Below, piece after piece: positions 11,369 through 46,842 of a DNA stretch of 64,000 nt (position 1 is its first letter; each line of letters opens with the position of its first letter). Position numbers and translations under genes: made by a program. Origin of the DNA: an uncultured Clostridia bacterium (lineage in GTDB: Bacteria > Bacillota > Clostridia > TANB77 > CAG-508); NCBI GenBank assembly GCA_944386175.1, contig CALXAB010000001.1, positions 47,645-111,644 on the forward strand. The letters run 5' to 3'. Below the pieces are notes generated by a model. The model did not search any database and had not been told where the DNA came from. It worked only from the letters and a program-made list of their open reading frames with translations.

Positions 11369-11409
11369 AAAAAACCTCCATTGGAACAACTTATTATATT
11401 TTGATAATT

Positions 11410-14141: not shown

Positions 14142-14152
14142 ATTAACCTCCA

Positions 14153-14196
14153 TTACAAACGTACTACCATTTTATCATATTGTTGTACGTTTGTAA
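14153..14196. promoter_or_regulatory. inverted repeat upstream of abiEi (candidate autoregulatory operator)
   Basis: TTACAAACGTAC (14153-14164) and GTACGTTTGTAA (14185-14196): perfect 12-bp arms with a 20-nt spacer, 12 nt upstream of the start codon. Confidence 0.5.
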
Positions 14197-15868: not shown

Positions 15869-15869
15869 A

Positions 15870-16349: not shown

Positions 16350-16649
16350 AACTTTTGTCCCCCTTATATATGACGTATAAAAATTCGATTCGTTACAAAG
16401 TTTGTTAAATTTTTTCATTTTTTTATTCTATTATATCAAAAATAGCAGATTTTTGTACTTAAAATGAAATCTCCTTATTAAACTTTTTTGTCTAATAATT
16501 TGAGTTCACTTCATTTTTTTCTGCTATTAATTAGAACTATAAATTATTATTTTGTAATTACAATATGTTGACTATTTAAACACATTTTATAACTAGTTAA
16601 GCTTACTAAATGGCTAATTTTGTATTTATTATTATATGTTTTATCTTTA

Positions 16650-17352
16650 TCACAACTCCATTTCTTGACTATCTAATATTTTTGTACATTTTTCTCTTTC
16701 TTTTTTTATTCCTTCTTGTATTGATGTTTTTATCAATGCTTTTAAATGTTCTGGTTCTGGATAATCTTTCTTATCTAAGGCTGCAAGAACAAACTTGTCT
16801 CTTATACTAAACCTTGTTATTTTTCCTTGTTCATTAGTAACTCTTAAAAGTTGATCTAATAAAATTCCAATATCCATAGGAAAACCATGCTCTCTTGAAT
16901 ATCTCTCAGCAAAAGCAAGTGTTGTTCGTGTATTACCATCTCTAAAAGGATGTACTCTCCACATTTTTACAATATTGTCTGTAAATTCTGCTGTTACTTC
17001 ATCAATATTTTTACCTGACCAATTAGAATTATTCAGTACAGTAAGAACTTTATCTAACTCTCCGCTCAATATTTTGTGGTTCAGAATATTCTAAGCTTAG
17101 ACCTGGAATAACTACTTCTTCTTTGTATATAGGAACTGTTCTAAACTCTCCTGCCCATTCAAATATATCTTCAAAAATATGTTTATGGAGTCTTTTTATA
17201 TAATCAATATCATATTTTTACTTAAATTCTTCTCCTACATCTATTAATTTTACAAAACCTATATCTTTTTCAGCACTATTTAACTCATCATATTCTTTAA
17301 TTCCTAGTTTATTTTTTAGAGTTCCGTTATCTTGAATATATGGATCTTTCAT
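16650..17352 (-). pseudogene. Fic/DOC family protein, disrupted by a nonsense codon plus a frameshift
   Basis: The N-terminal part MKDPYIQDNGTLKNKLGIKEYDEL starts at 17352. In-frame TAA at 17218-17220. The Fic motif HPFRDGNTRTT lies in ORF 16650-17069, which is in a different frame. Confidence 0.8.
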
Positions 17353-19991: not shown

Positions 19992-20107
19992 ATTTAATTC
20001 GACCTCTTTTCCTTATAACCAATTTATATCACAAAAAGCTAAATTTTCATAGTATTTTACCAATATTTCCAAACATATTTATCCTTAAATTTTAATATAA
20101 TTTTATA

Positions 20108-20345
20108 AGTACACTTAGTGAACTTTTTCTTAAAAATCACTTCTTTTTTGTTCATTTAGTGAACTTTTGCACTCTAAAAAGCGTTTTTTATCCATTCACT
20201 CGGTGAATTTTTGCATCAGATCTGCATAAAATTTTTGTTTTTTTATTAACTCTTGAAGGCTTGCCCTTCAATGTGTATATGCGTTGCGTAATGCACGCTA
20301 TCCTGCCTTTAGTATTCACTTTAGTTCACCTTATCAAAATTAATT
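20108..20345 (-). repeat. partial, orphan copy of the R module (distal half only)
   Basis: Collinear with 51134-51350, 36674-36880 and 43392-43605. Dyads at 20108-20124, 20150-20164 and 20194-20208. Conserved core and hairpin at 20246-20307. No smORF or recombinase adjacent. Confidence 0.85.
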
Positions 20346-20452: not shown

Positions 20453-20791
20453 GTGGATTTAAATCTATTGGAACCTATTATTAATAATCTTGATAAAGCA
20501 ATTCATAAGACTAACTTAAAAGACTCTTTTATAGACGAGTTTATTCATGATTTACAAAGAAGTATTTTAAGGCAAAACCTTGATTATGATTATAGTAAAT
20601 TACCTAAAAATACCATATTTGAAGTCGACTATATTGAAAATGGATTTGCTTCTTGTTTAGATACTGCACAAAAACATTCAGAAAAATATTATATTCCAGA
20701 AGAGTTACTTGATGAAACTGCCAAAAATGCAGATTATATTCAACTTGACGGTAACAAATATACTGCTGTTTCTAATCCATATAAAAATTAG
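20453..20791 (+). CDS. hypothetical protein (112 aa)
   Basis: AGGAGG at 20440-20445 and GTG start at 20453. The longer ORF from 20261 would read through the R repeat and is unlikely. Confidence 0.5.
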   Translation: MDLNLLEPIINNLDKAIHKTNLKDSFIDEFIHDLQRSILRQNLDYDYSKLPKNTIFEVDYIENGFASCLDTAQKHSEKYYIPEELLDETAKNADYIQLDGNKYTAVSNPYKN

Positions 20792-21758
20792 TTTCTGCAT
20801 AAAAATAAGAACATATTTGAAACATGCTCTTATAACTTATCTTATTTGCTCCATCTAAATTTAAATCTTTTCTTTTTTCTATTATAATATTATTTCCATC
20901 ACTCTTTAGCCATATAGTTCCATCATCTTTTGTTATAAATATATTATCTTCTTCTATTCCAATATTTTTTAGTCTTTCTAAAACATTTAAGTTTGGATGA
21001 TTATACCCTTCATTATTTCCAGCAGATATGATTGCATAAGTAGACTTTACTATATTTAAAAATTCACTAGATGTAGCATCTTCTGCTCCATGATGTGCAA
21101 CTTTTAATACATCAATTTTTTCTAAACCTTCTATTTTACTGTCTAAGTTATTTGTTAAATCTCCTGTAAATAAATATTTTGTATTTATATATTCAAGTTC
21201 AATTACTATTGATGTATCATTTAATTTATTTTTGTCAGTTGGATCTGAATTATCAACATTTAAACACTTCCACTTTGCTTTTCCTAAACTATATTCGATG
21301 TCTTGCGATTTCTCTATCTGTTGCTTGTTAATATTATTTTCTTTTATATAGTCTTCTAATTCAGTATAAAATCTTTTTCCTTGATATGTACTATATGGCA
21401 TATACAATGTTTTTACATTTATATTTGTTAATACTTCTTGCATCCCACCAATATGGTCTTCATCTATATGTGTTCCAATTAAATAATCTAATTCAACTAT
21501 TCCCTGTTCTTTCAAAAATTTTGATATATATTCTCCATCAGAGCCATTTCCACAATCTATCAACATATTGACATCATTATTCGTGACTAATATACTTTCA
21601 GCTTGTCCTACATTAAAAAAAATTATATTTAATTCTGAACTATCAATTCCAATATTTCCATATTTATTATTTAAGTTCACTTCTATAAATATTAAGAAGA
21701 TTAATACTAGTATAATTAATAATACTGTTAAAATAGATTTTAAGTTTTTCTTATTCAT
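20772..21758 (-). CDS. membrane-anchored MBL-fold hydrolase (ComEC C-terminal lactamase-like domain)
   Basis: N-terminal TM. LIDCGNGSDG, GTHIDEDHIGG and VAHHGA motifs. Confidence 0.7.
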   Translation of the reverse strand: MNKKNLKSILTVLLIILVLIFLIFIEVNLNNKYGNIGIDSSELNIIFFNVGQAESILVTNNDVNMLIDCGNGSDGEYISKFLKEQGIVELDYLIGTHIDEDHIGGMQEVLTNINVKTLYMPYSTYQGKRFYTELEDYIKENNINKQQIEKSQDIEYSLGKAKWKCLNVDNSDPTDKNKLNDTSIVIELEYINTKYLFTGDLTNNLDSKIEGLEKIDVLKVAHHGAEDATSSEFLNIVKSTYAIISAGNNEGYNHPNLNVLERLKNIGIEEDNIFITKDDGTIWLKSDGNNIIIEKRKDLNLDGANKISYKSMFQICSYFYAETNFYMD

Positions 21759-21767: not shown

Positions 21768-22589
21768 CTATACATTTGCAACTTGTAATGTTTCAAAATA
21801 ATCTAGTACACTTTTAACTACCTCTTCTATTGGTAGTTCTAGCCAATTGTTTTTAGCAGTATTTAAACTCTTCAAATAATTTTTGTTATGTAATATTCTA
21901 TTTAATCTTTTAAATATATCCTCTAAGTTATTTTCTTTCATAGTTTCATCACTAAATATAAAAGTATTAAAACATTTTATCAATTTATTCTTATTTAAAT
22001 TTTCATTATTTATTAAATAATAGAAATCAAATATATCTTTGTATCTTGTAGAGATAAAACCAAATTTTAATAATGATTTCAATTTTTCTGAAAAAATTTG
22101 CTCTTTAGAATTTATTAGTAAAGTAACACTTTCTTTGATATTATTTAGATCAAAACAATATTCTTCTTGTTCAATATCAAAATTTTTATGCACTCCTATA
22201 TCTAATTTTGTTTCAATTTTATTATGTCTTTTATCTTTTAATTCAATATATACTCTTTTTCCATTATAATCTTGATGACTTAATTCTTCAATTGGAGCTA
22301 TAATTTTTATTGTTATATCTGATTCTTCATGATTCAACTTATCTATAAAATTTTCTATGGACTCATTTGATAAAGAATACTTTATAAAATCTAAGTCTAA
22401 ATCTCTTGTAGCTCGACGACTATCTTTAGAAATATTATGCATAACTACTCCACCTTTTATAGTTATATTTCTATTTAAAGAACTTTTGGATATTTTGGCT
22501 AGTATAATATCTTGACATACTTTGGCAGATGCATCTAAATGTTCATATCCATCTTTAATATAGTTATCTCTCATTTCTTTTAAATTCAT
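21768..22589 (-). CDS. AbiEii/AbiGii-family nucleotidyltransferase toxin (second locus)
   Basis: ITIKGGVVMHNISKDSRRATRDLDLDF nucleotidyltransferase core. Start overlaps the stop of the upstream antitoxin-like gene. Confidence 0.7.
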   Translation of the reverse strand: MNLKEMRDNYIKDGYEHLDASAKVCQDIILAKISKSSLNRNITIKGGVVMHNISKDSRRATRDLDLDFIKYSLSNESIENFIDKLNHEESDITIKIIAPIEELSHQDYNGKRVYIELKDKRHNKIETKLDIGVHKNFDIEQEEYCFDLNNIKESVTLLINSKEQIFSEKLKSLLKFGFISTRYKDIFDFYYLINNENLNKNKLIKCFNTFIFSDETMKENNLEDIFKRLNRILHNKNYLKSLNTAKNNWLELPIEEVVKSVLDYFETLQVANV

Positions 22590-26488: not shown

Positions 26489-27163
26489 TTAGTCTTTCGG
26501 GTCTTTAATAACAATTCTAAAAGAGATGTCTGGACTTTCTCTTTCTGGGTCTGCCCATGTTCTGAAAATAGGAGAATGTTTTTCACCTGTGTTAAAGCAT
26601 GAGCCATGTCCTCCCCTAATAATTCTATGATGGTCATACAGTTCAGATTTTTCTGTTGTCCATGTATATGCATTTCCCCAGAAACAATCTAAACGGTTAC
26701 GCATCCAATTAGGATTTGAGCCTGTTTTCTTTAAAATAAATGGATTGGTATAATTCCCAATATCATCATTTCCTTTAATAAAAACTTCCTCAAAAGTTGC
26801 TGCACCTGTTTGTACTAACCACATAGCAATTCGGTTATATTCTTCGTTTCCTATTACAGTTCCATCCATCTTTTTTGCTAATTCCATTGCATCAGGAAAT
26901 TTAATATTTACACATGGATATTTTCCTGCAATTGAATATGGATTTCCTTTGTTGTCTATAGATATCTCATATCTTGAAATCCAAAAACCTCTTACATATA
27001 ACCCATCTGCTGTGTACCCTGATGGAATTCTTAAAAGATGATTTCCATTATCATCTTCTATTACATATCCATCATTAATAGTTCCTTCTTTGAAGTGATA
27101 TTTCTCTAAAACATCTACTTCAATCCGATCACCATCACAATACTCTACAAATCTTTCTCTCAT
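26489..27163 (-). CDS. SUMF1/FGE-family (formylglycine-generating-enzyme-like) protein
   Basis: GFWISRYEIS, RIIRGGHGSCFN and WADPER resemble the FGE-sulfatase domain. Has its own TTGACA-17-TATAAT promoter at 27228-27256. Confidence 0.55.
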   Translation of the reverse strand: MRERFVEYCDGDRIEVDVLEKYHFKEGTINDGYVIEDDNGNHLLRIPSGYTADGLYVRGFWISRYEISIDNKGNPYSIAGKYPCVNIKFPDAMELAKKMDGTVIGNEEYNRIAMWLVQTGAATFEEVFIKGNDDIGNYTNPFILKKTGSNPNWMRNRLDCFWGNAYTWTTEKSELYDHHRIIRGGHGSCFNTGEKHSPIFRTWADPERESPDISFRIVIKDPKD

Positions 27164-27291
27164 GTTAATGACCTCCTATATAAAGACTTGTTAATAAGAT
27201 ACCAATTAGCTTTTGCTAATTGGTATTATTATATATTATGGTATTGATTTTGTCAACATAATTAAATTTTAATCAATTTATACTTTTAAAA

Positions 27292-27975
27292 TTACTTTCC
27301 AAAAATTCTACTTGCTTCTACTTGATTATATAATGCTTCTTCATTATCATAATAGAAAGCCCATTCTTTATCTCCATATGAAAAGTGCCACCACTCACCA
27401 TCATATGGAGCAAATCCTTCTTTCATCATAATTTTTCTTAATAATTTCCTATTATTTTTTGCTTCCTCTGATATATTTTCAGTTTCATAATAGCATTGTA
27501 TAGTACTATAATCTAATATATCTGAACCAAAATCTAATATTTTATTTTCAACATCATCATATATAGCTGCATCAACTGCTCCACCTGTCGGATGTCCTGA
27601 AACAACTGGTACAGCAATTTTCTCATGTATGTATTCATACATCTCTATTTCATCTTCAAATTTATCCTTTACTTCTTCTAGGATTTCATTAAAATATTTC
27701 TCTTGTTTTTTCATATCTCTAAAACCATATACTACTATTATTTTATAATTTTCATTTACTTCTTTTAACTTTTTTGCAACATTTATAAGTTTTTTATAAA
27801 CAGTTTTTCTTACAGCTATTTGATGTCCATATTCCAACATATTTCTTCTTTCTTGATATTTTCCAATCACTAGGTCATCTTCTAATGGAAGTAGTACAAA
27901 TTCTTCTTTGTCTGTTTCTTCATTAAAGTTCTCAATAGTTATCAAATCTTCATATCTTACAAAATTATTTGCCAT
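27292..27975 (-). CDS. VanX/DdpX-like D-Ala-D-Ala dipeptidase (M15 family)
   Basis: Zinc/catalytic motifs SGHPTGGAVD and EWWHFSYGD. Confidence 0.75.
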   Translation of the reverse strand: MANNFVRYEDLITIENFNEETDKEEFVLLPLEDDLVIGKYQERRNMLEYGHQIAVRKTVYKKLINVAKKLKEVNENYKIIVVYGFRDMKKQEKYFNEILEEVKDKFEDEIEMYEYIHEKIAVPVVSGHPTGGAVDAAIYDDVENKILDFGSDILDYSTIQCYYETENISEEAKNNRKLLRKIMMKEGFAPYDGEWWHFSYGDKEWAFYYDNEEALYNQVEASRIFGK

Positions 27976-27997
27976 TTGTATATTTGTCCTTTCTTTC

Positions 27998-29317
27998 CTA
28001 TTTTTTATTTTTTTGTAGTATTTTTATAGTTTCATCTAGCGTTATAGTATTTTGTTCCCCTGAATTCATATCTTTTAATGTTATTACATTATTTTTTATT
28101 TCTTCATCTCCTATAATTATTACATAATTTGCATTAATATTATTAGCATACTTGAATTTTTTTCCTATCTTTTGTTGTTCAATATTAATTTGTACATTTA
28201 TACCCTTTTCTCTTAGTTTTGCAGCTACTTTTGCACACATTTCACAGTCATCTGTCATTGAAATTATTAATACTTCTGCAATTGTTTCTTCAGTTGCTGA
28301 AATTATTTTATTATCTATTAGTTGAAAAAATAGCCTTGATAATCCTATTGAAATCCCTACTCCTGGCATTTTTCTATCAGTATAAAATTCTGTTAAATTG
28401 TCATATCTTCCTCCTGAACATATACTTCCTAAGTTTTTATATTGATTTAAAAATGTTTCATAAACTGTTCCTGTATAATAATCTAACCCTCTAGCAATAC
28501 TCAAATCAATTTTATAATTCTCTTCTGGAACTCCAAATATTTCAATAAATTTAGAAACTTCTTTTATTTCTTTTATACCTTCATTAAATATTTCATTATT
28601 AATTTGCATATTTTCTAATTCTTTTATTTTTTCTTCATTGTTTCCTCCTATACCCAAAAATTTAATTATAACATTAGCTTTTTTTTCTGGCATAAGTACT
28701 AATAATTCTTTTTTTACTTCTTCTTTTCCTATTTTTTCTATTTTATCAATTATTCTTAATATTTCAGATGATATATCTTCAAGTTTTAAACTTGAAAAAA
28801 GTCCATTTAATATTTTTCGATTATTTATACATATTGTAAAATCATCAAATCCTAACTTTTTAAAGGTATTATATATAATAGATGGAATTTCTGCATCATT
28901 TATTATTGACAATTCACCATCTCCAATAATATCAACATCACATTGATAAAATTCTCTATATCTTCCTCTTTGAGGTTTCTCACCACGATATACTTTTCCT
29001 ATTTGGTATCTTTTAAATGGAAAACTTAATTTATCATAGTATTCAGTTACATATTTAGCTAATGGTACTGTTAAATCAAACCTCAAAGCTAAATCTGTAT
29101 CTCCTTTTTCAAATCTATAAATTTGTTTTTCCGTTTCTCCTCCAGCTTTGGCCAGTAAAACATTTGCATCTTCTATTATTGGTGTATCTAATGGTACAAA
29201 ACCATATTGTTCGTAAGATTCTTGTATTATCGCTCTCATTTTATTAAATAATATTTGTTCATTAGGTAATAATTCCATAAATCCTGGTAAAGTTTTTGGT
29301 TGTATTTTCCCTTTCAT
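27998..29317 (-). CDS. hisS: histidine--tRNA ligase, copy 1 (divergent type)
   Basis: Class II motifs FRYE-like (KQIYRFEKGD), RYREFYQCDVDIIG and GGRYDNL, plus a C-terminal anticodon-binding domain. 439 aa. Confidence 0.85.
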   Translation of the reverse strand: MKGKIQPKTLPGFMELLPNEQILFNKMRAIIQESYEQYGFVPLDTPIIEDANVLLAKAGGETEKQIYRFEKGDTDLALRFDLTVPLAKYVTEYYDKLSFPFKRYQIGKVYRGEKPQRGRYREFYQCDVDIIGDGELSIINDAEIPSIIYNTFKKLGFDDFTICINNRKILNGLFSSLKLEDISSEILRIIDKIEKIGKEEVKKELLVLMPEKKANVIIKFLGIGGNNEEKIKELENMQINNEIFNEGIKEIKEVSKFIEIFGVPEENYKIDLSIARGLDYYTGTVYETFLNQYKNLGSICSGGRYDNLTEFYTDRKMPGVGISIGLSRLFFQLIDNKIISATEETIAEVLIISMTDDCEMCAKVAAKLREKGINVQINIEQQKIGKKFKYANNINANYVIIIGDEEIKNNVITLKDMNSGEQNTITLDETIKILQKNKK

Positions 29318-29329
29318 TCTAACTCCTCC

Positions 29330-29980
29330 TTAATAATCTCCTTTAATATTTTTTTTCTTTTTATTTCCTTGTTTTTTATGTCTTTCAATTAATTTATCTT
29401 CTATTTCTTGTATTGAAACATTAGATTTAAACATTAATACTAGTGTATGATATATTAAATCAGAAATTTCTCCTATCAATTCTTTTTTATCTATGTTTTT
29501 CGCAGCTATTACTGTTTCAGTTGCTTCTTCACCAACTTTTTTGCATATTTTATCTATTCCTTCATCTAATAAATAATTAGTATATGAATTTTCCTTTGGA
29601 TTAATATTTCTATCAATTATCTGATTATAAATATCCTGTAAGATATTTGTATCATCATTATTTTCATAAGAAACTATTTCCTTAAAAAAGCATGAATAGT
29701 TACCAGTATGACATGCTCCTTTTCCTTCCTGCTTTACATAAATCAACAATGTGTCGTTGTCACAATCTAAATACATGCCTTTTATTTCTTGAATATTTCC
29801 TGATGTTTCTCCTTTATGCCATAATTCTTTTCTACTTCTTGAATAAAAACATGTTTGTTTGTTTTCTATCATATATTTATAACTATCTTCGTTTACATAT
29901 GCTAACATCAATACTTCTTTTGTTTTATAATCTTGTACTATTGCTGGAATTAACTCCATCTTTTTAAAATCTGGCTTCAA
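29330..29980 (-). CDS. hisIE: bifunctional phosphoribosyl-AMP cyclohydrolase / phosphoribosyl-ATP pyrophosphatase
   Basis: HisI part [18 protein letters not shown]...DCDNDTLL...ACHTG. HisE part [15 protein letters not shown]. Confidence 0.9.
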
Positions 29981-30082
29981 TATTCTTCAACTCCTAAAAT
30001 ATTTATATTACTTATATATTGTTATTTTTATTGTGGGGAAAATAATACAATTATTTTCCCCTTTGATTAAACACTTTAAATC

Positions 30083-31447
30083 TTAAAGCTCTTTATCAAG
30101 GTAGATTTTTAAATCTTCCTCTTTTCTCTCTTTCTGTAATCTTCTCATCTTGTCAACACTACTTACACCTTCAAGTAATTTAAATCCTAATTTCACGGCA
30201 ATATTATAGGACATAGATTTACCTATTTCGAGAGTTTTCATATATACTCTTTCATAACCATCCTCTTTCATTACTTCAATAGCATATTTCATTAACTCTG
30301 TCCCAATTCCTTTTCCACGAAACTCTTGTAAGACTGTTATATCAGCAAGATATGCTGTTTTTTCTGGATTATCATAATGGACAGGATGCCTATCTTTTAA
30401 TAACATTTTTCTAAAAGTTACTGTTCCTATACATTCATCTCCAATATAATATCCATAAACATGACCGTATTTTGTTAGTTCTTCATATTCTTCTTTGATT
30501 AAATCATCTGTCCAATCCTCACAATATGGGGGATTACAAAATACTTTATATGCTTTTATAAAGTCTTTTATTTTATCTGGTGTTATTGCTTTGATTCTCC
30601 GTGCCATCATAGTTTTTTCCTCCTCTAATTCAATTGAATATTTTTTTCCATCAGTTTCAACATTGCCTAAAATAGTAGCCTTTTCAAAATTCCCTTCTTT
30701 ATAGATTATGTCTGCTGTAATAATCAATCCAGAAGGCTGTAAAACATCAATTTTTACACTTTCATTTTTTAAATAAGCTTCTACAATACATGTAGCTGTT
30801 GTCCCAGACCCACATGCTGTTTCATAGAAAAGTGTATGAATTTCCTTAACCCATACAATTGGATTAATCTTTATTACACCTTTTTCTTTTTCGCAGAACA
30901 TAACTCCTACTGCTTCACTATATTCAAGATGATATTTATGAATATAGTGCATCCCCATTGCTTTTAAATCCTTCTTATTAATAAGATATTTTTTAGCAAT
31001 TTCATCTTGAATAACTACAGTTACCATACCATTCATTTTTACAATAAAAATTCCTGGCTCTTTTTCAGTGATTACATCATCACCATGATAAAGTGGAATT
31101 TCGCACCATGCCTTTCCTTCTTCATCAACTCCTGCATTAATCAAATCTTTAGAATTTACAAACATTTGTAAATTCCCTGATTTACCATTTAAATAAATGG
31201 TTGCTGCACTTCTTGTTGCATTACCACAAAACTCTCCCCCTGCCATTTGCAATTCAGGTTTATGATTTAATTCAATAAACCCAACCTGCTCAACATTAGA
31301 ATGTTTTGCCATAATCAAATCGTTGATTTTCTTTCTCTGTTTTTGTGTATATTCCAATCCATAAACGAATGCTGTATCATTACCAGCTGGTCTATAAATT
31401 GAATATTCCACATTAGTTACAGATGCTTTGCAATGTTTTTCGTTCAT
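30083..31447 (-). CDS. fusion protein: DapF-fold PLP-independent racemase/epimerase (N-terminal) + GNAT acetyltransferase (C-terminal)
   Basis: RPAGNDTAFV, GGEFCGNATRSAA and ETACGSGTTATC (two catalytic-Cys motifs of the DapF fold). The C-terminal part has VLQEFRGKGIGTELMKYA (GNAT motif A). Confidence 0.65.
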   Translation of the reverse strand: MNEKHCKASVTNVEYSIYRPAGNDTAFVYGLEYTQKQRKKINDLIMAKHSNVEQVGFIELNHKPELQMAGGEFCGNATRSAATIYLNGKSGNLQMFVNSKDLINAGVDEEGKAWCEIPLYHGDDVITEKEPGIFIVKMNGMVTVVIQDEIAKKYLINKKDLKAMGMHYIHKYHLEYSEAVGVMFCEKEKGVIKINPIVWVKEIHTLFYETACGSGTTATCIVEAYLKNESVKIDVLQPSGLIITADIIYKEGNFEKATILGNVETDGKKYSIELEEEKTMMARRIKAITPDKIKDFIKAYKVFCNPPYCEDWTDDLIKEEYEELTKYGHVYGYYIGDECIGTVTFRKMLLKDRHPVHYDNPEKTAYLADITVLQEFRGKGIGTELMKYAIEVMKEDGYERVYMKTLEIGKSMSYNIAVKLGFKLLEGVSSVDKMRRLQKERKEEDLKIYLDKEL

Positions 31448-31520
31448 AATGTTCTCCTTTCTTTGAATTGAAGGTAAGTATAAAATATTTATACTTAGTA
31501 ATGAATAAATTACATTAATT

Positions 31521-31549
31521 ATTATATATTCATTTTATGTAAAAGTCAA
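31521..31549 (-). promoter_or_regulatory. sigma-A-type promoter for the racemase-GNAT/hisIE/hisS unit
   Basis: TTGACT (31549-31544), 17-nt spacer, TATAAT (31526-31521). Its -35 overlaps the hairpin GTAAAAGTC...GACTTTTAC (31539-31577) just after the hisG stop. Confidence 0.5.
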
Positions 31550-31579
31550 GAAAATCCAGTATATTCAAGACTTTTACGG

Positions 31580-32215
31580 TTATTTATTATTTTGTTTTTC
31601 TATTAAATCAATTAAATTTAAAATTTCTTCCTTCTTATACTTAAATTTAGTCTTATTACAAATTAATCTTGTACTTACATCTGCTATTTTCTCTATAACT
31701 TCTAAGCCATTCGCTTTCAATGTTGCTCCTGTTTCTACTATATCTACTATTGCATCTGTTAATCCAACTACTGGTCCTAATTCAACTGACCCTTCAAGTT
31801 TTATTATTTCAACATCTTCATCTTTACTTTCAAAATAGTTTTTAGCAACACTAGGATATTTTGTTGCTATCCTTTTTCTTCTATTTAATTTTAGATTTTT
31901 ATATTCAGGATAACTACAGACTGCAAATGAGCATTTTCCTATTTCCAAATCTAGTAATTCATAATAATTTTTAAAAGAATTTTCCAGTAATGTATCACTA
32001 CCTACAATTCCTATATCAACAATACCATGTTCAATAAAGGTAACTACATCGTTTGACTTTGCAAATATTATTATCATTTTATCTTCTACGTTTATTTGTA
32101 ATTCTCTTTTTTTATTTATCATAGATTCTACATTATATCCTAATTTTTCTAACATTTCTGTCATCTTTTTTTCTATTCTACCCTTTGTTAAGGCTATCTT
32201 TAACATTTTGTTCAC
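31580..32215 (-). CDS. hisG: ATP phosphoribosyltransferase, short form
   Basis: 211 aa. [13 protein letters not shown] and [18 protein letters not shown]. The short HisG form requires HisZ. Confidence 0.9.
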
Positions 32216-33176
32216 CTGCTCTTTCTACTGCTTTTAATATATTATCCATATAATAAGCCATTCCTATGGCTGGTACATCCTTTCCGAAATTGTTATATAA
32301 TTTGTCATATCTTCCACCACTTATTATAGGTTCTTCTACAAATTTACTATATACTTTAAATATAATTCCTGTATAATATTCCATATTAGGAACACAAGCC
32401 AAATCAAACAAATCTTGTTGTTTCATATTCATGGTTTCATACAATTCTTTCAATTCTATTAGACTATTCTTTAATTCATTATCTCTTAATTTTTCTATGG
32501 TTCTTACTAATATTTCTATATTTCCATTAAGTCTTGGTAAAGATATTAAAAAATTGCTTATATTTTTATCTATATTATATTTATCACAAAATTTTTTTAA
32601 TCCACTTATATTTTTTTGTAGTAATAGCTGCGAAAACTCTTTCTTTTTTTCAGATCCAACTATTTGGCATAATCTATTATAAAAACTAGCTGAACCAAGT
32701 TCTATCTTTAAATCCTTTAATCCAAAAAGTGGTAAAGATTTTTGTAATAATGATATACACTCTACATCTCCTTCTATTGCTTTTTTTCCAATTAATTCTA
32801 TCCCTACTTGGTATATTTCGCTATTCTTTCCTTTATGTTCCTTTTCTTTTCTATATACTTTTCCAAAATAGCAATACCTTTTTATTTCATCTTTTTTTTG
32901 TGATACATAGTATCTAGCTATTGGAACTGTAAAATCCCATCTTAAAGCAACATCTTTTCCTTCTTTATTTATATATTTGAATAAAGTACTCTCATCTAAA
33001 TTCTTATATACACTTTTATATAATTCCACATATTCAAATGTTGGCATCAGCATTTCTATATATTTTTCATCATAGAATATCTTTCTCAATTTACTTTCAA
33101 AATTTCTTAATTTATTAACATTCTCAGTAATTACCCCACTACTTTCTTCTGGTATTGAAAATTTGTATAATTCCAT
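32178..33176 (-). CDS. hisZ: ATP phosphoribosyltransferase regulatory subunit (HisRS paralog without anticodon-binding domain)
   Basis: 332 aa with a HisRS-like catalytic core ([19 protein letters not shown]). Overlaps hisG. Confidence 0.85.
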
Positions 33177-33196
33177 AAAAATTCTCCTTTCACATT

Positions 33197-33251
33197 AAAA
33201 AGCTATATAGTTAAATAATATCTTTCTATGAATATTATCTACCTATATAGC
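33197..33251 (-). terminator. attenuator terminator in the hisZG leader
   Basis: On the minus strand: GCTATATAGG (33242-33251) ... CTATATAGC + TTTTT (33197-33210), 20 nt upstream of the hisZ RBS. Confidence 0.65.
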
Positions 33252-33314
33252 TTTATATTTTTATATAGGCACATCAAAATCGACTTGTGCCTATACATTA
33301 TATTAGACACAAGT

Positions 33315-33362
33315 TTAAAAATGATGATGCACTTTATTTATATTTTTAGTTATATTCTTCAT
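33315..33362 (-). CDS. 15-aa leader peptide MKNITKNINKVHHHF with three consecutive His codons
   Basis: AAGAGGAA RBS, ATG at 33362-33360, CAT CAT CAT at 33329-33321, TAA at 33317-33315. Followed by overlapping alternative stems. Confidence 0.6.
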   Translation of the reverse strand: MKNITKNINKVHHHF

Positions 33363-33392
33363 TTTTATTCCTCTTTTTTCTTATTTTTAATT

Positions 33393-33421
33393 ATAATACA
33401 TTATTTTTTTATATATGTCAA
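33393..33421 (-). promoter_or_regulatory. sigma-A-type promoter of the hisZG leader
   Basis: TTGACA (33421-33416), 17-nt spacer, TATTAT (33398-33393). Confidence 0.6.
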
Positions 33422-33482
33422 GTACAAAATTCATTTTTTTTAACATGCTATAACCAATTATGATTATAGCATGCTTTAGATT

Positions 33483-33767
33483 TTACTTAGAGAAAGATAT
33501 AATTGCATAATGTCGCTTTGCATCAATTTGATAATAAGAATGCCCCCTAATATTAATTGGCTTTTCTATTGTTTTAATAGAAATTTTCAGCCCATTACCA
33601 TTTGCCCAGCTTGTTAGTTCTCTTTCCATAGCAACATCTACATCCCTTTTTTCTTTTTCAATCTGAACTTTCTTGAAAAATACTAATGCTACTTTTACTT
33701 TGAACTTAATCCATTCCGTATCAAACCGTGACCTTTCTCTTCTTTTTCTACTTTCAAATTTTGACAT
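33483..33767 (-). CDS. hypothetical basic protein (94 aa)
   Basis: ORF only. Followed by the hairpin AGCATGCTATAA..TTATAGCATGTT. Confidence 0.35.
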   Translation of the reverse strand: MSKFESRKRRERSRFDTEWIKFKVKVALVFFKKVQIEKEKRDVDVAMERELTSWANGNGLKISIKTIEKPINIRGHSYYQIDAKRHYAIISFSK

Positions 33768-33873
33768 ATAGATTTACCTCCTACTATTTATTTTATTTAT
33801 TTTATCACATACACTTATATTTTTCAATTAAAATTTTAGGAAGCCATGCATTATACACAGCTCCCTATGATTT

Positions 33874-35205
33874 TCAGTCCTTATTATTAGTTTCGATAAA
33901 TTGCATAATCCCTTCATAGTCAAAGATACCGAACTCTCGATTGTTTCCAGTTTCCATATCCTTGACTTGGATTTTTTGCTGTTTGATTTCATCTTCCCCA
34001 ATAATAATAACGTAAGGAATGTTCATTTTGTTGGCATAATTCATACTTTTTTTCAGTTTCTGAGTCTTTTTTTCCATTTCTGTTTTGATTCCAACTTCAC
34101 GCATTTTAGTAACAAACTTAAATGTCTGTTCTTCTGTTCCCATTGGAATCACAAACAAATCAACGGTAGAAAACTTTTTGTCAGAATTCTTTAAGACTAA
34201 AATTTCATATATAACATCTAATCCAAAAGACATTCCAACTGCTGGATATTCATTTCCATCATCAATGAATGTTGTAATAATTTTATCGTATCTGCCTCCT
34301 CCTCCTATGCTCATGTTGAAATCTTGTACACCAACTTTTCTGTCTTTCAGGAAAATCTCCCAAACTGTACCAGTATATATATCAATCCCTCTTGCCAAAT
34401 AAGGAGCAAATTTCATGCATTTTTCGGCCTCTGTTCCTGACAGATAATCATATAATGCATCAATTTCTTTTATCCCTTCGGCAATCATTTCATTATCATA
34501 TACTGATAATAATCTTTTTAATGTTACATAATCAGAGTTTAGAACATTTTTCAATGCCTCCACTTTATTGGCATCAATACCAATAGCTGCAAACTCTTCA
34601 AATAATTCTTCCTCTGTGAGTTTGGCAAACTTATCAATCAACATGATTGATTTTCTTAATATTTCTTCCGAAACATCACCAAAAATAGAGAAGATGATAC
34701 CACTCAATAGCTTTCTGTTGTTGAATTCTATTTCAATGTCAAGTCCTAGCTCTTTATATGCTTCGCTTGTCATTGTCATGTATTCTGCTTCTGCTAAAAC
34801 ACTTTTAACTCCAACAACATCAACATCGCATTGGGTAAATTCTCTGTTTCTACCTACCTTAACTGGACCATCTCTAAAAACTTTTCCAATCTCATACCGT
34901 TTAAAGGGTAAGGTAACTCCTTTATTTGAACTAATCAATTTAGAAAAAGTGATTGTCAAATCATACCTTAAACCCAGTTTTCTTTTTCCTTGATCACTCA
35001 ATTTGTACATCTCGTTCAGAATATCTGCACCTTCTGAATATTTAGATGCCAATAAGTCATACATACAAAGAATTGGTGTTTCGACTGGTGAAAATCCGTA
35101 CTTTACAAAGATGCTTTGCAATACACTTTTGATTTTTTCCCGGATAATTTGTTTTTCCGGCAAATAATCATAAGTCCCCTTTAAGTTTTCAAAATTTCTG
35201 CTCAT
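33874..35205 (-). CDS. hisS: histidine--tRNA ligase, copy 2 (canonical bacterial type)
   Basis: KGTYDYLPEKQ, LRYDLTITFSK, NREFTQCDVDVVG and GGGGRYDK, plus an anticodon-binding domain. 443 aa. Confidence 0.85.
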   Translation of the reverse strand: MSRNFENLKGTYDYLPEKQIIREKIKSVLQSIFVKYGFSPVETPILCMYDLLASKYSEGADILNEMYKLSDQGKRKLGLRYDLTITFSKLISSNKGVTLPFKRYEIGKVFRDGPVKVGRNREFTQCDVDVVGVKSVLAEAEYMTMTSEAYKELGLDIEIEFNNRKLLSGIIFSIFGDVSEEILRKSIMLIDKFAKLTEEELFEEFAAIGIDANKVEALKNVLNSDYVTLKRLLSVYDNEMIAEGIKEIDALYDYLSGTEAEKCMKFAPYLARGIDIYTGTVWEIFLKDRKVGVQDFNMSIGGGGRYDKIITTFIDDGNEYPAVGMSFGLDVIYEILVLKNSDKKFSTVDLFVIPMGTEEQTFKFVTKMREVGIKTEMEKKTQKLKKSMNYANKMNIPYVIIIGEDEIKQQKIQVKDMETGNNREFGIFDYEGIMQFIETNNKD

Positions 35206-35450: not shown

Positions 35451-36125
35451 TTAAAATTCCCTTATATCATATCTAAAATATAGTCCATCCATTTTTATTT
35501 TATGAAAATCTTTTATTATATTTTCTTTGACTTTATTAAAATCTTTTCCTACTCTTCTTAATGCAAATACTCTACCTCCTGAAGGATATAGTATATTATT
35601 TTTTGATATTATATGTTCCCCTATAATATCTGTTGTATTTTTTACTTTGTTCATACCTAAAATTGGTTCATCAAAACTACTTCTTTCTACTTCTGGATAT
35701 CCTGCTGAAAATCCATACATTGCTATAGAAAAGCAGTCTTTTTTCCAACAATTATTTATCTTTTCTACATCTTCATAAAAGAAATTTATTATATCTATAA
35801 AAGGTTTATTCAGTAACCCTAATAAAGCTAACCACTCTGGATTACCTGTTCTTGTATTATATTCTAATACATATACTTTTTTATCTTCGGTAACCATTAT
35901 TCCTATATATAAAATATAGTTATATTCCATATTTTCTTTTTTCATACCTCTTATAGTTGGTTCTATTATATCTTTTTTTAATTGTTCTTCTTTTTCTGTG
36001 CTAACTCTTGCATAAGCACATACTCTTAAATTACCTTTTATAACTTCTCCTGTTGTTCTATTAATTCTTCCTTTTTTCTTCTCTATTACTTGTACTTTCA
36101 AATTTAACCTCTCTTTCTCAAGCAT
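35451..36125 (-). pseudogene. chimeric ORF: first 48 codons of an LSR gene fused in frame to the C-terminal ~176 aa of a PurD-like (phosphoribosylamine-glycine ligase) gene
   Basis: Residues 1-48 (MLEKERLNLKVQVIEKKKGRINRTTGEVIKGNLRVCAYARVSTEKEEQ) are almost identical to LSR 48681-50573. From 35981 leftwards the sequence matches the PurD C-terminal half (EYNTRTGNPEW, SGGRVFAL, DGLYFRYDI). Confidence 0.8.
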
Positions 36126-36168
36126 AGAGAATCTTTATGTTTGTATTATATACTAAAATTTTATATTT

Positions 36169-36354
36169 TTAAATACCTATGTGGATTAAATTATATTCTT
36201 TTAAAATATTTTGTTTTAGTTCTAAATATCTTTTCTCTTTAATTAATCCTGCATTATATGTTTTATTTAGAATTGCTATTTTAATGCTACAATTAAAAAT
36301 ATTTTCATTTAGTTTTACATTTTTCGTATTATCAAATTTTACTTCGTACAACAT
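36169..36354 (-). CDS. 61-aa conserved small ORF preceding the LSR (copy A)
   Basis: MLYEVKFDNTKNVKLNENIFNCSIKIAILNKTYNAGLIKEKRYLELKQNILKEYNLIHIGI. Nearly identical to copy C and homologous to copy B. Confidence 0.6.
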   Translation of the reverse strand: MLYEVKFDNTKNVKLNENIFNCSIKIAILNKTYNAGLIKEKRYLELKQNILKEYNLIHIGI

Positions 36355-36439
36355 AAAAATCCTCCTCTGCTTGAATTAAATTTCAAAAAAGAGCGACAAA
36401 AAAGCCAGCCGGCTAGCTAGACTGACTTCTTTGTCTTAC

Positions 36440-36890
36440 ATTTTTTGATAATACAATTATATTATGCTGTTCTATAAAGTTCAATTCCCGTTTTTTTCCC
36501 TTTTTTCTATTTTAATTGATAAAGCGTTGACTTTTTAGTTAGTACACTAAGTAAACTTGTGTAAAAATTTTTTTAATTATTTTTTACTTTATTATTTTTG
36601 AGTTCACTTAGTGTACTTTTTGTTTTGTATTTAAAAACCTTAGTTCACTTAGTGAATAAAAAACTAACTTTCAAGTACACTTGGTGAACTTTTTCTTAAA
36701 AATCACTTATTTTTCGTTCATTTAGTGAACTTTTGCACTCTCAAAGGCATTTTTTAGCTGTTCATTCGGTGAATTTCCGCATCAAATTTGCTTAAAATTT
36801 TTGTTCTTTTGTTAACTCTTGAAGGCTTGTCCTTCAATGTGTATAGGCGATGTGTGCACACTCGCTTTCCTGCCTTTAGTATTGTTTTTT
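36440..36890 (-). repeat. R module, copy A
   Basis: Dyads at 36541-36557, 36601-36617, 36642-36658, 36674-36690, 36716-36730 and 36760-36774. Core and hairpin at 36812-36874. Ends 2 nt from the stop of the ABC gene. Confidence 0.85.
36456..36484 (-). promoter_or_regulatory. consensus sigma-A promoter of unit A'
   Basis: TTGAAC (36484-36479), 17-nt spacer, TATAAT (36461-36456). A terminator-like leader hairpin at 36403-36427 plus a T-run follows. Confidence 0.6.
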
Positions 36891-43058: not shown

Positions 43059-43149
43059 GAAATTGCTCCTTTTCTTTAAATTTGAAAAGAAAAAGAACAA
43101 AGAAACTAGAATCTTTCTAATCCCTTTGCTCTTTCTCTTTCATACTACC

Positions 43150-43178
43150 ATTATATTATCGTGTTTTTATATAGTCAA
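43150..43178 (-). promoter_or_regulatory. consensus sigma-A promoter of unit B
   Basis: TTGACT (43178-43173), 17-nt spacer, TATAAT (43155-43150). Confidence 0.6.
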
Positions 43179-43199
43179 TTCCATTTTTATTCCCTCTTT

Positions 43200-43640
43200 T
43201 CTATTTTTGATATAATTCTAGTATCTAATTTTATAAGTACACTAAGTAAACTAAAAATTGTATAATTTTAAATTGCAGTTCACTTGGTGTACTAGAAAAA
43301 TATAACAAAAGTTCACTAAGTGTATTTGTAAATTTTGTTTTATTTTCACATTCACTTAGTGAACTAAATTCAAAAATATTATTCAATATCAAGTACACTT
43401 GGTGAACTTTTTCCCAAAATAAGTGAATTTTTTTAATTTTTTAATTCACCATTTTTAATTTTGAACGAAGAATAGCGGGTTTGAGCCAGTTCACCGAGTG
43501 AATTTTTACATCATATTTGCATAAAATTTTTGTTTTTTTATTAACTCTTGAAGGCTTGTCCTTCAATATGTATAGGCATTTTGTTAAGAATGCTATCCTG
43601 CCCTCATTTTCAATGAGGTATTTTGCTCTTAAAATGTACT
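43200..43640 (-). repeat. R module, copy B (diverged)
   Basis: Dyads at 43236-43252, 43277-43293, 43310-43326, 43350-43365, 43392-43408 and 43488-43504. Outward-facing half sites at 43422-43450. Core and hairpin at 43541-43603. Confidence 0.8.
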
Positions 43641-45294: not shown

Positions 45295-46791
45295 CTATTT
45301 TTTTGCAATATATTTTTGATTTTTAGTATTTGGTTTATCTGGTATAGTCATTTGCAATTTTCCACTATCTAATAATGGTCTCATGTATTTTAAATAGAAA
45401 TTTCTTCTGTCTTTTAATCCTAAATATGCCATTATTTCTTTTGTTGTTTTTGGTTCTCTACAAAATTCTAATATTTTATCTTGATGGGTATCTTGGTGGA
45501 TATCTTGGTGGGTTGTTGGTCGGTCTTTTATCTCATTTTCAAATCTATCATGTATAAATATTGTTGTAATAAAATAATCTCTTGTTTCATTTGTTTCAAA
45601 CTCTGGTTCTTTTGAGCCATTATTTTTCAATGCTCTTTTTATTTTTGGAATACCTGTATTTCTACCTTCTGTTAATTTTAATTCTTTTAAAAACTCTCCA
45701 ATTCTACGATTTCTATATTTTCTTGCTATCATATTTTTATCTTCAATTGATTTTTCGCTTATTGAACGGTCTGGTCCTGGATAACTTACAATATGAATTC
45801 TATCTTCCATTATTCTTACTTCTACTGGTTCCCTTACATCATATCCTCTATGATAAACTGCATTTACTAATGCTTCTTCTATTGCTTGATATGGATAATT
45901 AAAAAATCTTACAGCCTCCGCTTGTCCATCTATCTTTAAAATTTTTTCCATAATAACAGTATTTTTAATATATGTTAAAGCACTTTTTATCATAGTATCA
46001 ATAGGTCCTTTAAATATTTGCTCTGTCATATCATCACCTTCTGGACCGTTTCTTAAATCTACTACTTCTATTTGTGAATATGGAAAGAATTTTTGTGGCT
46101 CATCATTAAAAAACATTAACCCTACATTTAAAGGTTTCATATATTCTGGTGTTCCATCTACTATTCTCATACTTTTACATAAATCTATAAAACTCATTGT
46201 TTCGGATTCTTTTAATAGTTCACTCTTTATCTCATATAAGTAATTTTGAATTAGTGGTAGTTTTAAATCTTGAATTTGTGCCTCATGATTCATTCTATCA
46301 TCGAATGGTATTACTCTTGCCATATCATATAATTCTTTTTGCTCTACTTCTGTAGCTTTTACTGTACTGGACATTTTTCTAATATAATATGAATATCCTT
46401 TTGAAAAATCTTTATCTAGTGTTGTTGGACATTTGTATGGTCTATTCTGACCACCAAAACACCATACTACTAGTATATTTTTACCTTTATATTGAGCAAC
46501 ATCTACAATTGGTGTATAGGCTGGCTGTATCATTTTACATTTTGTTAGCAATTCTTTTTGAATTTTATCTATTTCAGATAATTGTAGCCCTTCAAAATCT
46601 TTCTTAGGTCTACCATTTGCTTCTTCAACACCTATTAAAATATATCCTCCACCCCAGTTATCTATATCATTTGCAAAAGCACAAATTGTATGTAATATTG
46701 GTTCTGGATTCCAGTTTCTCTTTAATTCTAATCTTGCATTTTCTACAATGTTTTCATTTAGTATATTTTCTATACTTGTAGGTAATCTCAT
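45295..46791 (-). CDS. AlbA_2 (Schlafen-like) + HATPase_c_4 + C-terminal wHTH protein
   Basis: ENARLELKRNW...FANDIDNWGGGYILIGVEE (AlbA_2) and EALVNAVYHRGY (ATPase-like). C-terminal wHTH-like tail. HQDIHQDTHQD repeat. Confidence 0.7.
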   Translation of the reverse strand: MRLPTSIENILNENIVENARLELKRNWNPEPILHTICAFANDIDNWGGGYILIGVEEANGRPKKDFEGLQLSEIDKIQKELLTKCKMIQPAYTPIVDVAQYKGKNILVVWCFGGQNRPYKCPTTLDKDFSKGYSYYIRKMSSTVKATEVEQKELYDMARVIPFDDRMNHEAQIQDLKLPLIQNYLYEIKSELLKESETMSFIDLCKSMRIVDGTPEYMKPLNVGLMFFNDEPQKFFPYSQIEVVDLRNGPEGDDMTEQIFKGPIDTMIKSALTYIKNTVIMEKILKIDGQAEAVRFFNYPYQAIEEALVNAVYHRGYDVREPVEVRIMEDRIHIVSYPGPDRSISEKSIEDKNMIARKYRNRRIGEFLKELKLTEGRNTGIPKIKRALKNNGSKEPEFETNETRDYFITTIFIHDRFENEIKDRPTTHQDIHQDTHQDKILEFCREPKTTKEIMAYLGLKDRRNFYLKYMRPLLDSGKLQMTIPDKPNTKNQKYIAKK

Positions 46792-46842
46792 CTTCTCACC
46801 TTTCTTTTTCAAATGTCCGTTTTTTCGGACTTATAAAATTTT

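Follow-up and report, generated by a model that had tools for sequence, protein, structure and literature searches.

A histidine-linked racemase, acetyltransferase and M15 peptidase module beside two histidyl-tRNA synthetase genes in an uncultured Clostridia bacterium

Introduction

Why would a bacterium keep an amino acid racemase fused to a GNAT acetyltransferase, and a VanX/VanY-like M15 zinc peptidase, among genes for histidine biosynthesis and two genes for histidyl-tRNA synthetase (HisRS)? This arrangement occurs in a 64,000-nucleotide stretch of contig CALXAB010000001.1 from an uncultured Clostridia bacterium, here called the window, where hisZ, hisG, the racemase::GNAT fusion gene, hisIE, HisRS1 and the M15 gene are preceded by HisRS2 and followed by a gene for a protein resembling formylglycine-generating enzyme (FGE). 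A preliminary description of the DNA offered three readings: a split his regulon with accessory genes, a pathway that makes or handles a D-amino acid or an N-acetylated histidine-related compound, and a small-molecule cluster in which the extra HisRS confers self-resistance. We found that the racemase, GNAT and M15 genes constitute a module that is undescribed so far; nothing in the literature that we searched brings HisRS, a dipeptidase and an acetyltransferase together with a histidine racemase. It is close to certain that the juxtaposition of these genes is not fortuitous and that the module is functional and histidine-linked.

The module is linked to histidine genes in two phyla

A search with the fusion protein returned 1123 homologues, most of them matching the racemase domain. 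They comprise 454-aa fusions like that of the window, stand-alone racemases of 265-280 aa, and one 494-aa M15::racemase fusion. We sampled 80 loci carrying a racemase relative, one per species-level genome. The proteins of the window served as seeds for the iteratively built profiles with which we scored the open reading frames (ORFs) of these loci; linkage was counted within a radius of 6 kb around the racemase. The loci cover Clostridia, Bacilli and many Patescibacteria lineages. The partners found were HisRS (42 loci), M15 (41), GNAT of the same family (29), HisG (15), the FGE-like protein (11) and HisIE (9), and no neighbour outside the module was conserved across the 80 loci beyond lineage-specific housekeeping genes. 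In pig-gut and other genomes a stand-alone racemase lies inside an overlapping hisS-racemase-M15 operon, and the usual order in Patescibacteria is racemase::GNAT, M15, HisRS. The linkage extends to the tRNA itself: the loci contain 39 tRNA genes, of which 13 are for tRNA-His, and of the 15 at no more than 3 kb from the racemase, 9 are. Genomes typically carry a single tRNA-His gene in a set of 40-50 tRNA genes.

Single proteins also combine the partners. The racemase::GNAT fusion occurs in both Clostridia and Patescibacteria, with orthologous GNAT domains that have a PPYxE motif in common. M15 is fused to the racemase in locus L004, and elsewhere to a long-form HisG with its regulatory domain. 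Fusions between the racemase and HisRS exist in both orders, HisRS::racemase in two loci (L088 and L091) and racemase::HisRS in a third (L016), all as clean in-frame ORFs. The possibility that the genes next to one another here would occur in unrelated contexts in relatives is contradicted for the racemase::GNAT and M15 genes by the 80-locus linkage, in which racemase, GNAT and M15 recur with HisRS, tRNA-His and HisG in two phyla.

Two of these loci differ from the window in gene content. In L016 (10001-12157) the racemase is 88% identical, the GNAT domain and hisIE are absent, and the racemase reads into HisRS1 to give a 718-aa ORF with a KVHHHF leader directly upstream. In L058 (11349-14807), and also in L061, a 289-aa unknown protein, an ArgE/DapE-type M20 deacylase and an M20 dipeptidase are encoded between the GNAT and HisRS genes. 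The deacylase beside an acetyltransferase hints at an acetylation/deacetylation pair.

The racemase domain is nearest to CntK and HisR

Gene identities in the window were assigned by Pfam and NCBIfam profile scans of its proteins, with bit scores compared to the curated cut-offs. The N-terminal domain of the fusion protein scored 85.6 bits with the NCBIfam model of the histidine racemase CntK, 82.4 with that of HisR and 18.1 with that of the diaminopimelate epimerase DapF (TIGR00652), far below the respective equivalog cut-offs of 300, 400 and 114.65. Its sequence matches in the PDB are CntK and HisR only. The AlphaFold model of the fusion protein (predicted local distance difference test, 85.8; predicted template modelling score, 0.57) has the DapF-like pseudo-symmetric two-domain fold in the racemase part and a disordered linker at aa 276-282; its nine top Foldseek matches are CntK and HisR structures, and DapF structures come lower. 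The preliminary description of a DapF-fold, two-cysteine racemase is borne out, and sequence, profile and structure matches alike are better with CntK/HisR than with DapF. Diaminopimelate epimerase was rejected as the identity of the domain on both the profile score and the structural ranking.

Two motifs around the cysteine pair, GGE72-F-C74-GNAT and Y-E209-T-A-C212-GSGT, are invariant in sets of 16 and 24 homologues. The corresponding glutamates of HisR (E65/C67 and E206/C209) have been proposed to hold the imidazole ring (PMC11602996). On these active-site residues and on the linkage to HisRS, tRNA-His, HisG, HisZ and HisIE, the predicted substrate of the racemase is histidine. Judged from sequence, the racemase is a separate, third clade within the Pfam CntK_N family; other sequence clusters of the family were left uninterpreted in the report on HisR (PMC11602996). 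A tblastn search of phages and plasmids with the fusion protein gave only distant matches at the CntK/HisR level or annotated as DapF (27-32% identity), and with no close relative there we rejected a phage or plasmid origin of the fusion.

The C-terminal domain has the GNAT fold, and its acetyl-CoA loop, RGKGIG, fits the pattern R/Q-x-x-G-x-G/A. In the predicted structure, the nearest neighbours of the GNAT domain appear to be resistance acetyltransferases for toxic amino acid analogues, by a slim margin over generic GNATs.

Leader attenuators and operators point to induction by histidine shortage

Leader attenuators of Firmicutes his genes are known, one of them before the second hisS gene in the B. 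cereus group (PMC2965389), and so is the regulon of the HisR repressor (PMC9413887), a namesake of the racemase. No racemase, dipeptidase or acetyltransferase is named as a member of these histidine regulons (PMC2965389; PMC9413887). The hisZ-hisG unit of the window is preceded by a leader attenuator of the ribosome-stalling type: a small ORF containing successive His codons comes first, then hairpins that can form as alternatives, and an intrinsic terminator. We compared its folding energy with that of 200 shuffled sequences: the leader-terminator region has a minimum free energy of -45.6 kcal/mol (z = -5.3), and none of the shuffles (0/200) was as stable. Pairing between CCUAUAUA and UAUAUAGG upstream of the terminator, read by eye, gives a candidate antiterminator. 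Of 10 relatives, 9 have a KVHHHF leader in front of hisZ. The Rfam model His_leader (RF00514) did not match the window attenuator, and it likewise fails on Firmicutes his attenuators (PMC9413887). Neither the window nor any of 12 related loci yielded a T-box riboswitch; T-box control of the module was rejected, leader peptides being present instead.

In other Clostridia, leaders of this kind stand before the module genes themselves. ORFs with runs of His codons lie directly before the racemase, M15 or HisRS gene in about 16 Clostridia loci, and before any module gene in about 24, against a background of 2 among 493 other genes. We folded 13 of the leaders, and most have a terminator hairpin and a U run. 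The units that they precede include HisRS::racemase (leader MK.RIFLNQLHHHRRSL) and M15-racemase::GNAT (leader MNSAIFLNHFHHHC), as well as HisRS-racemase-M15, HisRS1-M15, hisIE-HisRS1-M15 and the racemase alone. A second histidine leader peptide (…KKAHHHHIKPVSLQ) is encoded in L017 in the gap from the fusion gene to hisIE, where the window has none. The window has at this place a perfect 12-bp palindrome, GGGGAAAATAAT...ATTATTTTCCCC (30035-30061), without a U run on the coding strand.

Patescibacteria-type loci carry a different device. In seven of them a gene of the TrpR family, YerC/HisR-type, lies 100-900 nt upstream of the racemase, and in two, L078 (9480-9518) and L084 (4416-4454), the YerC/HisR-like gene is preceded by two tandem copies of ACTTTAnnnnnnTAAAGT. 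These sites agree without mismatch with the core CTTTAnnnnnnTAAAG of the HisR operator cacTTTAnnnnnnTAAAgtg as published (PMC9413887). Another palindrome, ATTAACGTGTTAAT (TATATTAACGTGTTAATATA), is common to four loci (L070, L090, L085 and L068), again upstream of the racemase. No HisR operator was found near the cluster in the window. Short ORFs with 2-3 His codons and a G+C-rich terminator were also seen just before the racemase::GNAT gene in Patescibacteria-type loci. Taken together, attenuators and operators suggest that the module would be induced when histidine or charged tRNA-His is scarce.

Two full-length HisRS genes with different surroundings

HisRS1 and HisRS2 are 35% identical to each other. 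Both exceed the TIGR00442 cut-off of 286.75, and each carries an HGTP_anticodon domain (Table 1). The preliminary description had labelled HisRS1 divergent and HisRS2 canonical, labels that we abandon: HisRS1 has the higher score with the general hisS model, and neither copy is divergent, because motifs 2 and 3 and the histidine-binding motifs are kept in both. The count of three HisRS-fold genes within 7 kb, two full-length HisRS and HisZ, was correct.

HisRS1 is the HisRS type most frequently found beside racemase and M15 genes in other genomes. Packed between hisIE and the M15 gene, it looks like an inducible copy, and HisRS2, with its own promoter match and a terminator-like hairpin, looks like a constitutive one. 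Such a division would account for the duplication of HisRS without invoking antibiotic resistance. Extra copies of hisS beside or within histidine-regulated units are already known (PMC2965389; PMC6909576).

The M15 peptidase retains the VanX catalytic residues

The SGHPTGGAVD and EWWH motifs of the M15 protein align with H116/D123 and E181/H184 of VanX, and the YGFRD arginine motif is kept as well, so that every VanX catalytic residue (the His-Asp-His zinc ligands and the catalytic Glu) is retained. The protein is far from the characterised equivalogs, with 56.6 bits against a cut-off of 320 for the VanX model and 46.4 against 176 for the DdpX model, and no vanH/vanA or ddp genes lie near its gene. 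Its earlier description as a VanX-like dipeptidase thus stands for the catalytic residues, and fails for equivalog-level similarity and for a van or ddp context.

A partial histidine pathway under selection

The window encodes the first three steps of histidine biosynthesis, as had been described: HisG and HisIE score above their cut-offs, and HisZ falls slightly below its own (Table 1). HisZ lacks an anticodon-binding domain and its gene adjoins hisG, as for the regulatory subunit of ATP phosphoribosyltransferase. We looked for the other his genes by a Pfam survey of all window ORFs of at least 100 aa and by tblastn with the HisH, HisA and HisF proteins of a relative, and found none of hisA, hisF, hisH, hisB, hisC or hisD in the window, again in line with the preliminary description. 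In two relatives (L018 and L019) hisH-hisA-hisF lies between the fusion gene and hisIE; it is absent from this place in the window, in L013 (Clostridium sp. CAG:440), in L015 and in L017. None of these six clusters contains hisB, hisC or hisD.

Among the genomes without clustered hisHAF, the ratio of nonsynonymous to synonymous substitution rates (dN/dS) is 0.06-0.12 for hisZ, hisG and hisIE (hisZ 0.06-0.10, hisG 0.08-0.10). With this low ratio and the intact attenuator, the three genes are evidently in use. Two explanations offer themselves: the rest of the his genes may be located elsewhere, or these first three steps may serve a purpose by themselves. The cluster genes are all under purifying selection, with dN/dS of 0.06-0.26 in comparison with L013, L015 and L017.

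Arrangement of the cluster and its surroundings

The window has about 25% G+C, and the majority of its genes, including the entire cluster, are on the minus strand, where the ORFs of the preliminary description are present (Table 1). Promoter-like sites were scored as matches to 12 consensus positions. The fusion gene does lie between hisG and hisIE as described; the promoter of its own that had been ascribed to it amounts to a consensus match, and a terminator scan between hisG and the fusion gene gave no terminator-like site. Downstream of it, hisIE, HisRS1 and the M15 gene form a tightly spaced unit with hisIE first and gaps of 12 nt (hisIE/HisRS1) and 22 nt (HisRS1/M15). The position of orf94 between HisRS2 and hisZ is kept in close relatives only (80% identity in L013, 40-46% in L017 and L019), with dN/dS of 0.25-0.38.

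Table 1. Features of the cluster in the window, listed along the minus strand.
Feature	Position	Strand	Evidence and remarks
purD remnant/serine recombinase chimera	35451-36125	-	Upstream boundary of the cluster
HisRS2 promoter	35311-35283	-	12/12 consensus positions
HisRS2	33874-35205	-	TIGR00442 331 bits; PRK12420 498 bits; HGTP_anticodon; monocistronic
HisRS2 terminator-like hairpin	33867-33837	-	
orf94	33483-33767	-	Basic, 94 aa, no family match; promoter-like site and good ribosome-binding site
Promoter-like site of hisZ-hisG	33393-33421	-	TTGACA-17-TATTAT, 11/12 positions
Histidine leader peptide ORF (MKNITKNINKVHHHF, then stop)	33315-33362	-	15 codons, three consecutive His codons; peptide ends in His-His-His-Phe
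Attenuator terminator hairpin and U run	33196-33257	-	Just before hisZ
hisZ	32178-33176	-	332 aa; tRNA-synt_His core only; TIGR00443 249 bits (cut-off 271.65); overlaps hisG
hisG, short-form ATP phosphoribosyltransferase	31580-32215	-	TIGR00070 193 bits (cut-off 76)
Promoter-like site of racemase::GNAT gene	31521-31549	-	11/12 positions
racemase::GNAT fusion	30083-31447	-	454 aa; CntK/HisR-family racemase and Acetyltransf_1
Racemase domain (aa 1-275)	30623-31447	-	Cys74/Cys212 with flanking Glu72/Glu209
GNAT domain (aa ~283-454)	30083-30601	-	Acetyltransf_1 57 bits; RGKGIG acetyl-CoA loop; PPYxE motif
hisIE, phosphoribosyl-AMP cyclohydrolase/phosphoribosyl-ATP pyrophosphatase	29330-29980	-	268 bits (cut-off 187)
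HisRS1	27998-29317	-	TIGR00442 406 bits; anticodon-binding domain
M15 zinc peptidase, VanX/VanY-like	27292-27975	-	PF01427 70.5 bits (cut-off 27)
FGE-like gene promoter	27256-27228	-	Consensus promoter of its own
Short FGE-sulfatase-fold protein	26489-27163	-	224 aa

The FGE-like protein matches PF03781 with only 14 bits (cut-off 23.3; E = 0.04). Six of nine of its homologues match this family, the best at 1.8e-6, and distant relatives exceed the cut-off with 30-36 bits. The family (144 representatives) has no invariant cysteine, and the gene accompanies the racemase in the close clade only (11 of the 80 loci). The FGE/SUMF1-like label of the preliminary description therefore holds for the fold family by way of the relatives, and not for the protein's own match, which is below the cut-off, or for the cysteine pair. 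We rejected a true formylglycine-generating enzyme on the same grounds and treat the gene as accessory.

At the upstream boundary, what had been taken for a truncated PurD-like ATP-grasp ligase is indeed a purD remnant, though not a plain truncation. Its first 49 codons match the N-terminus of the serine recombinase at 48681-50573 with 96% identity, including the YARVST catalytic-serine motif, and are fused in frame at purD codon ~213 to PurD residues ~213-424. A 0.9-kb segment (35965-36883) repeats 50415-51342 at 91% identity, 14.5 kb apart, and comprises the 5' end of the recombinase and about 770 bp upstream of it. Weaker copies of the recombinase upstream part are seen at 20107-20316 (87%) and 43138-43602 (69%). 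The 5' half of purD is not in the window, and relatives have an intact purD at the matching position. This looks like tandem or nested serine-recombinase elements with a crossover or deletion point within the recombinase coding start. From the chimera, the repeats and the intact purD of relatives it follows that the cluster is chromosomal and that mobile DNA has disrupted purD, its left neighbour.

In L010 and L019 (552-6164), and also in L013, L014 and L026, the genes upstream of the intact purD encode an S66 (MccF/LdcA-like) peptidase, a 339-aa unknown protein, a 428-aa very divergent HisRS-like protein (TIGR00442 75 bits) and a PanC-like ligase (144 bits against 213). This fourth HisRS-fold gene and the adenylate-forming ligase may constitute a separate amide-ligase system.

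The spoIIIAA-AH operon, a gene for a DUF6583 protein and yebC lie at 3878-12129, 14 kb downstream of the cluster; judged from the spoIIIA operon and yebC, the host is a sporulating Clostridium. In L004 (9738-17485) the same yebC-X-spoIIIA block comes immediately after M15::racemase. Because this block adjoins M15::racemase there, the synteny appears old and the 12-26 kb stretch of the window looks like later insertions. Defence and toxin-antitoxin genes are dense around the cluster. They include three AbiEii toxin genes (13013-14153, 21768-22589 and 53266-54701), two of them with AbiEi antitoxin partners, a Fic-domain fragment (16650-17069) and a Schlafen/AlbA_2-Fic_C protein (45295-46812); an extracytoplasmic function sigma/anti-sigma pair is encoded at 15050-16418. 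A 328-aa metallo-beta-lactamase-fold protein (20772-21758) lies beside an AbiEii gene, and an identical gene in L001 gives a weak match to the Pfam family Anti-Pycsar_Apyc1.

Discussion

Our preferred reading, to which we would give an even chance of being right, is that the module secures and cleans the supply of L-histidine for tRNA charging. The M15 peptidase would free histidine, probably in the D form, from dipeptides with D residues, a substrate at which we are guessing. The racemase would then turn D-His into L-His, a direction suggested by the regulation: if the module is induced by histidine shortage, a racemase would be useful only from D to L. HisRS1, presumably co-transcribed, would load the L-His on tRNA, with HisRS2 as the housekeeping copy. 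The GNAT domain, we guess, might acetylate a histidine-like compound of no use to the cell, either residual D-His or an antimetabolite, at its alpha-amino group. The M15::racemase fusion and the fusions of the racemase with HisRS would thereby join consecutive steps, namely release, conversion and charging.

Several points count against this proposal. A racemase::acetyltransferase fusion is most simply read in the opposite direction, from L-His through D-His to N-acetyl-D-His, and neither D-His nor D-His dipeptides have a plentiful source in nature that we are aware of. The identity of the racemase to CntK and HisR is just 23-27%, and its scores are far under the NCBIfam cut-offs; the characterised HisR has millimolar Km values (PMC11602996). 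Within the window the leader belongs to hisZ-hisG only; a separate promoter-like site precedes the fusion gene, and read-through into it from the attenuated promoter is assumed. HisZG and HisIE would stop at phosphoribosylformimino-aminoimidazole carboxamide ribotide (ProFAR) unless hisHAF and hisBCD are located elsewhere. Some of the linkage may reflect a general clustering of histidine regulons instead of one pathway, and nearly all of the comparison loci are from metagenome-assembled genomes.

The direction of the racemase separates the preferred reading from a pathway with a D-His product, in which the racemase would make D-His from L-His and the GNAT domain would trap it as N-acetyl-D-histidine or a related compound. 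Such a compound could have an envelope, metal-binding or signalling use, the M15 peptidase could trim or recycle a D-His peptide, and the his and HisRS neighbours would share nothing more than the substrate. We consider this improbable, although together with defence against an antimetabolite it is the main rival. It draws on the racemase::GNAT fusion, kept in two phyla, since fusions usually join consecutive steps, on the two known relatives, CntK and HisR, both regarded as suppliers of D-His (for staphylopine in the case of CntK), and on an EamA-type permease gene after the module in some Patescibacteria loci. A racemase placed behind histidine-starvation attenuators or a HisR repressor gene would, however, drain L-His just when it is scarce, which is counter-productive, and the HisRS::racemase fusions and the tRNA-His linkage find no place in such a pathway; no cntL/cntM-type or other downstream biosynthetic genes accompany the module in the window or among the conserved neighbours, and N-acetyl-D-histidine is unmentioned in the literature searched. 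Defence against an antimetabolite seems to us unlikely to a similar degree. A histidine analogue, or D-His, would block HisRS or HisG, mimic starvation and so induce the module; the GNAT would N-acetylate the analogue, the extra HisRS together with HisZ/HisG would out-titrate it, and M15 and the racemase would handle forms that are D-configured or delivered as peptides, as in immunity to phosphinothricin, tabtoxin or microcin C. The analogue-resistance acetyltransferases are the nearest structural neighbours of the predicted GNAT domain, a second HisRS sits in the same unit, and starvation-type control would also answer an inhibitor of tRNA charging. Yet generic GNATs are nearly as close in structure, nothing implicates a histidine-analogue antibiotic from nature, and the module is kept beside HisRS and tRNA-His even in small Patescibacteria genomes, which looks more like a housekeeping function than like defence in a niche. 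The racemase would also lack a specific role unless the toxin is D-His, and then the explanation merges with salvage. Of the readings first offered for the cluster, that of a D-amino acid or N-acetylated histidine-related compound came closest, in that a conserved histidine-linked racemase/GNAT/M15 module exists.

A quite doubtful variant of the role in translation is that the trio proofreads activated histidine (His-AMP or His-tRNA-His) and not the free amino acid; for example, D-His-tRNA might be deacylated by M15, or mischarged tRNA-His might be N-acetylated by GNAT, and the racemase would recycle the D-His set free. That the genes are neighbours by chance, or are the remains of a decaying his operon, is very improbable. 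The hisH, hisA and hisF genes that are present in L018/L019 are gone here, purD is broken by mobile DNA, and the FGE-like gene is found in 11 of 80 loci only; against this, linkage and fusions recur in two phyla, the dN/dS of hisZ, hisG and hisIE is low, and the attenuator is intact and conserved. Chance is contradicted for the racemase, GNAT, M15 and HisRS genes and may hold for the FGE-like gene and orf94 only. The suggestion of a split his regulon with accessory genes was accordingly right about histidine regulation, as the leader attenuator indicates, and wrong in making the accessory genes incidental. We find it scarcely credible, and least so of all these explanations, that the locus is a natural-product cluster with a HisRS that protects the producer against its own HisRS inhibitor. 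Two full-length HisRS genes and hisZ do lie within 7 kb, and ABC exporters are encoded 1.7 kb upstream. No genes for an aminoacyl-tRNA synthetase inhibitor or for other biosynthesis were found in the window, though, and the exporters are situated upstream of the purD break, amid inserted DNA that carries recombinase genes, and are not there in relatives with intact purD. Racemase-linked HisRS occurs even in Patescibacteria, beside tRNA-His, and with extra hisS copies known from other histidine-regulated units, the self-resistance reading of the preliminary description was dropped.

Two cofactor-independent histidine racemases have been characterised to date, and the physiological role of one, HisR, is still unknown; the clade described here is a third. 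Its genomic logic lies in its ties to HisRS, tRNA-His and HisG, in five kinds of fusion, and in predicted histidine-starvation control in two distant phyla. If our preferred reading of L-histidine supply is right, D-histidine or a look-alike would be an ecologically relevant compound that bacteria salvage or neutralise for translation, the known Firmicutes histidine regulons would miss a branch, and the VanX-like peptidases and GNATs of the module would act outside cell-wall and antibiotic metabolism. Proofreading by the trio, if true, would add a novel form of quality control in translation, extending from gut Clostridia to Patescibacteria.

The closest known systems are the racemases CntK of S. 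aureus and HisR of F. nucleatum (PDB 6JIS and 9CR1; PMC11602996), which have the same fold, the same Cys pair and the same Glu residues 2 and 3 positions before the Cys. CntK is accompanied by cntL/cntM for staphylopine, and HisR by folate-type neighbours in Fusobacterium. The window racemase has neither context, and no staphylopine-type cluster is indicated, as cntL/cntM-type domains were found neither in the window nor among the conserved neighbours of the loci. Unlike both, it is fused to a GNAT domain, linked to HisRS, tRNA-His, M15 and HisG, and under predicted histidine-starvation control, a difference in context that suggests the opposite physiological direction, from D to L. The acetyltransferases phosphinothricin PAT/BAR, PA4866, tabtoxin TTR and ArsN1 resemble the GNAT domain in sequence within the acetyl-CoA core only, and the PPYxE motif is specific to the module family. 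The D-Ala-D-Ala dipeptidases VanX, DdpX and PcgL, and VanXY, have the zinc ligands, the Glu of EWWH, the Arg motif and the size (~200-230 aa) in common with the M15 protein, which differs in being linked or fused to a histidine racemase and HisG.

A second HisRS gene amid genes for the handling of free histidine is also known from the hdcP-hdcA-hdcB-hisRS2 cluster of lactobacilli (PMC6909576); the window has no decarboxylase or antiporter, and the partners are instead the racemase, GNAT and M15 peptidase. The published Firmicutes his attenuators (PMC2965389; PMC9413887) have the same 3-4 consecutive His codons and the same terminator and antiterminator before hisZ, whereas here the device also precedes racemase, M15, GNAT and HisRS::racemase genes. 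In the Patescibacteria-type loci a YerC/HisR-like gene heads the module, as in the HisR (YerC) regulon (PMC9413887). The published HisR regulons are confined to genes for histidine biosynthesis and transport, and the analysis did not extend to Patescibacteria (PMC9413887); histidine regulons appear not to have been described previously in this group.

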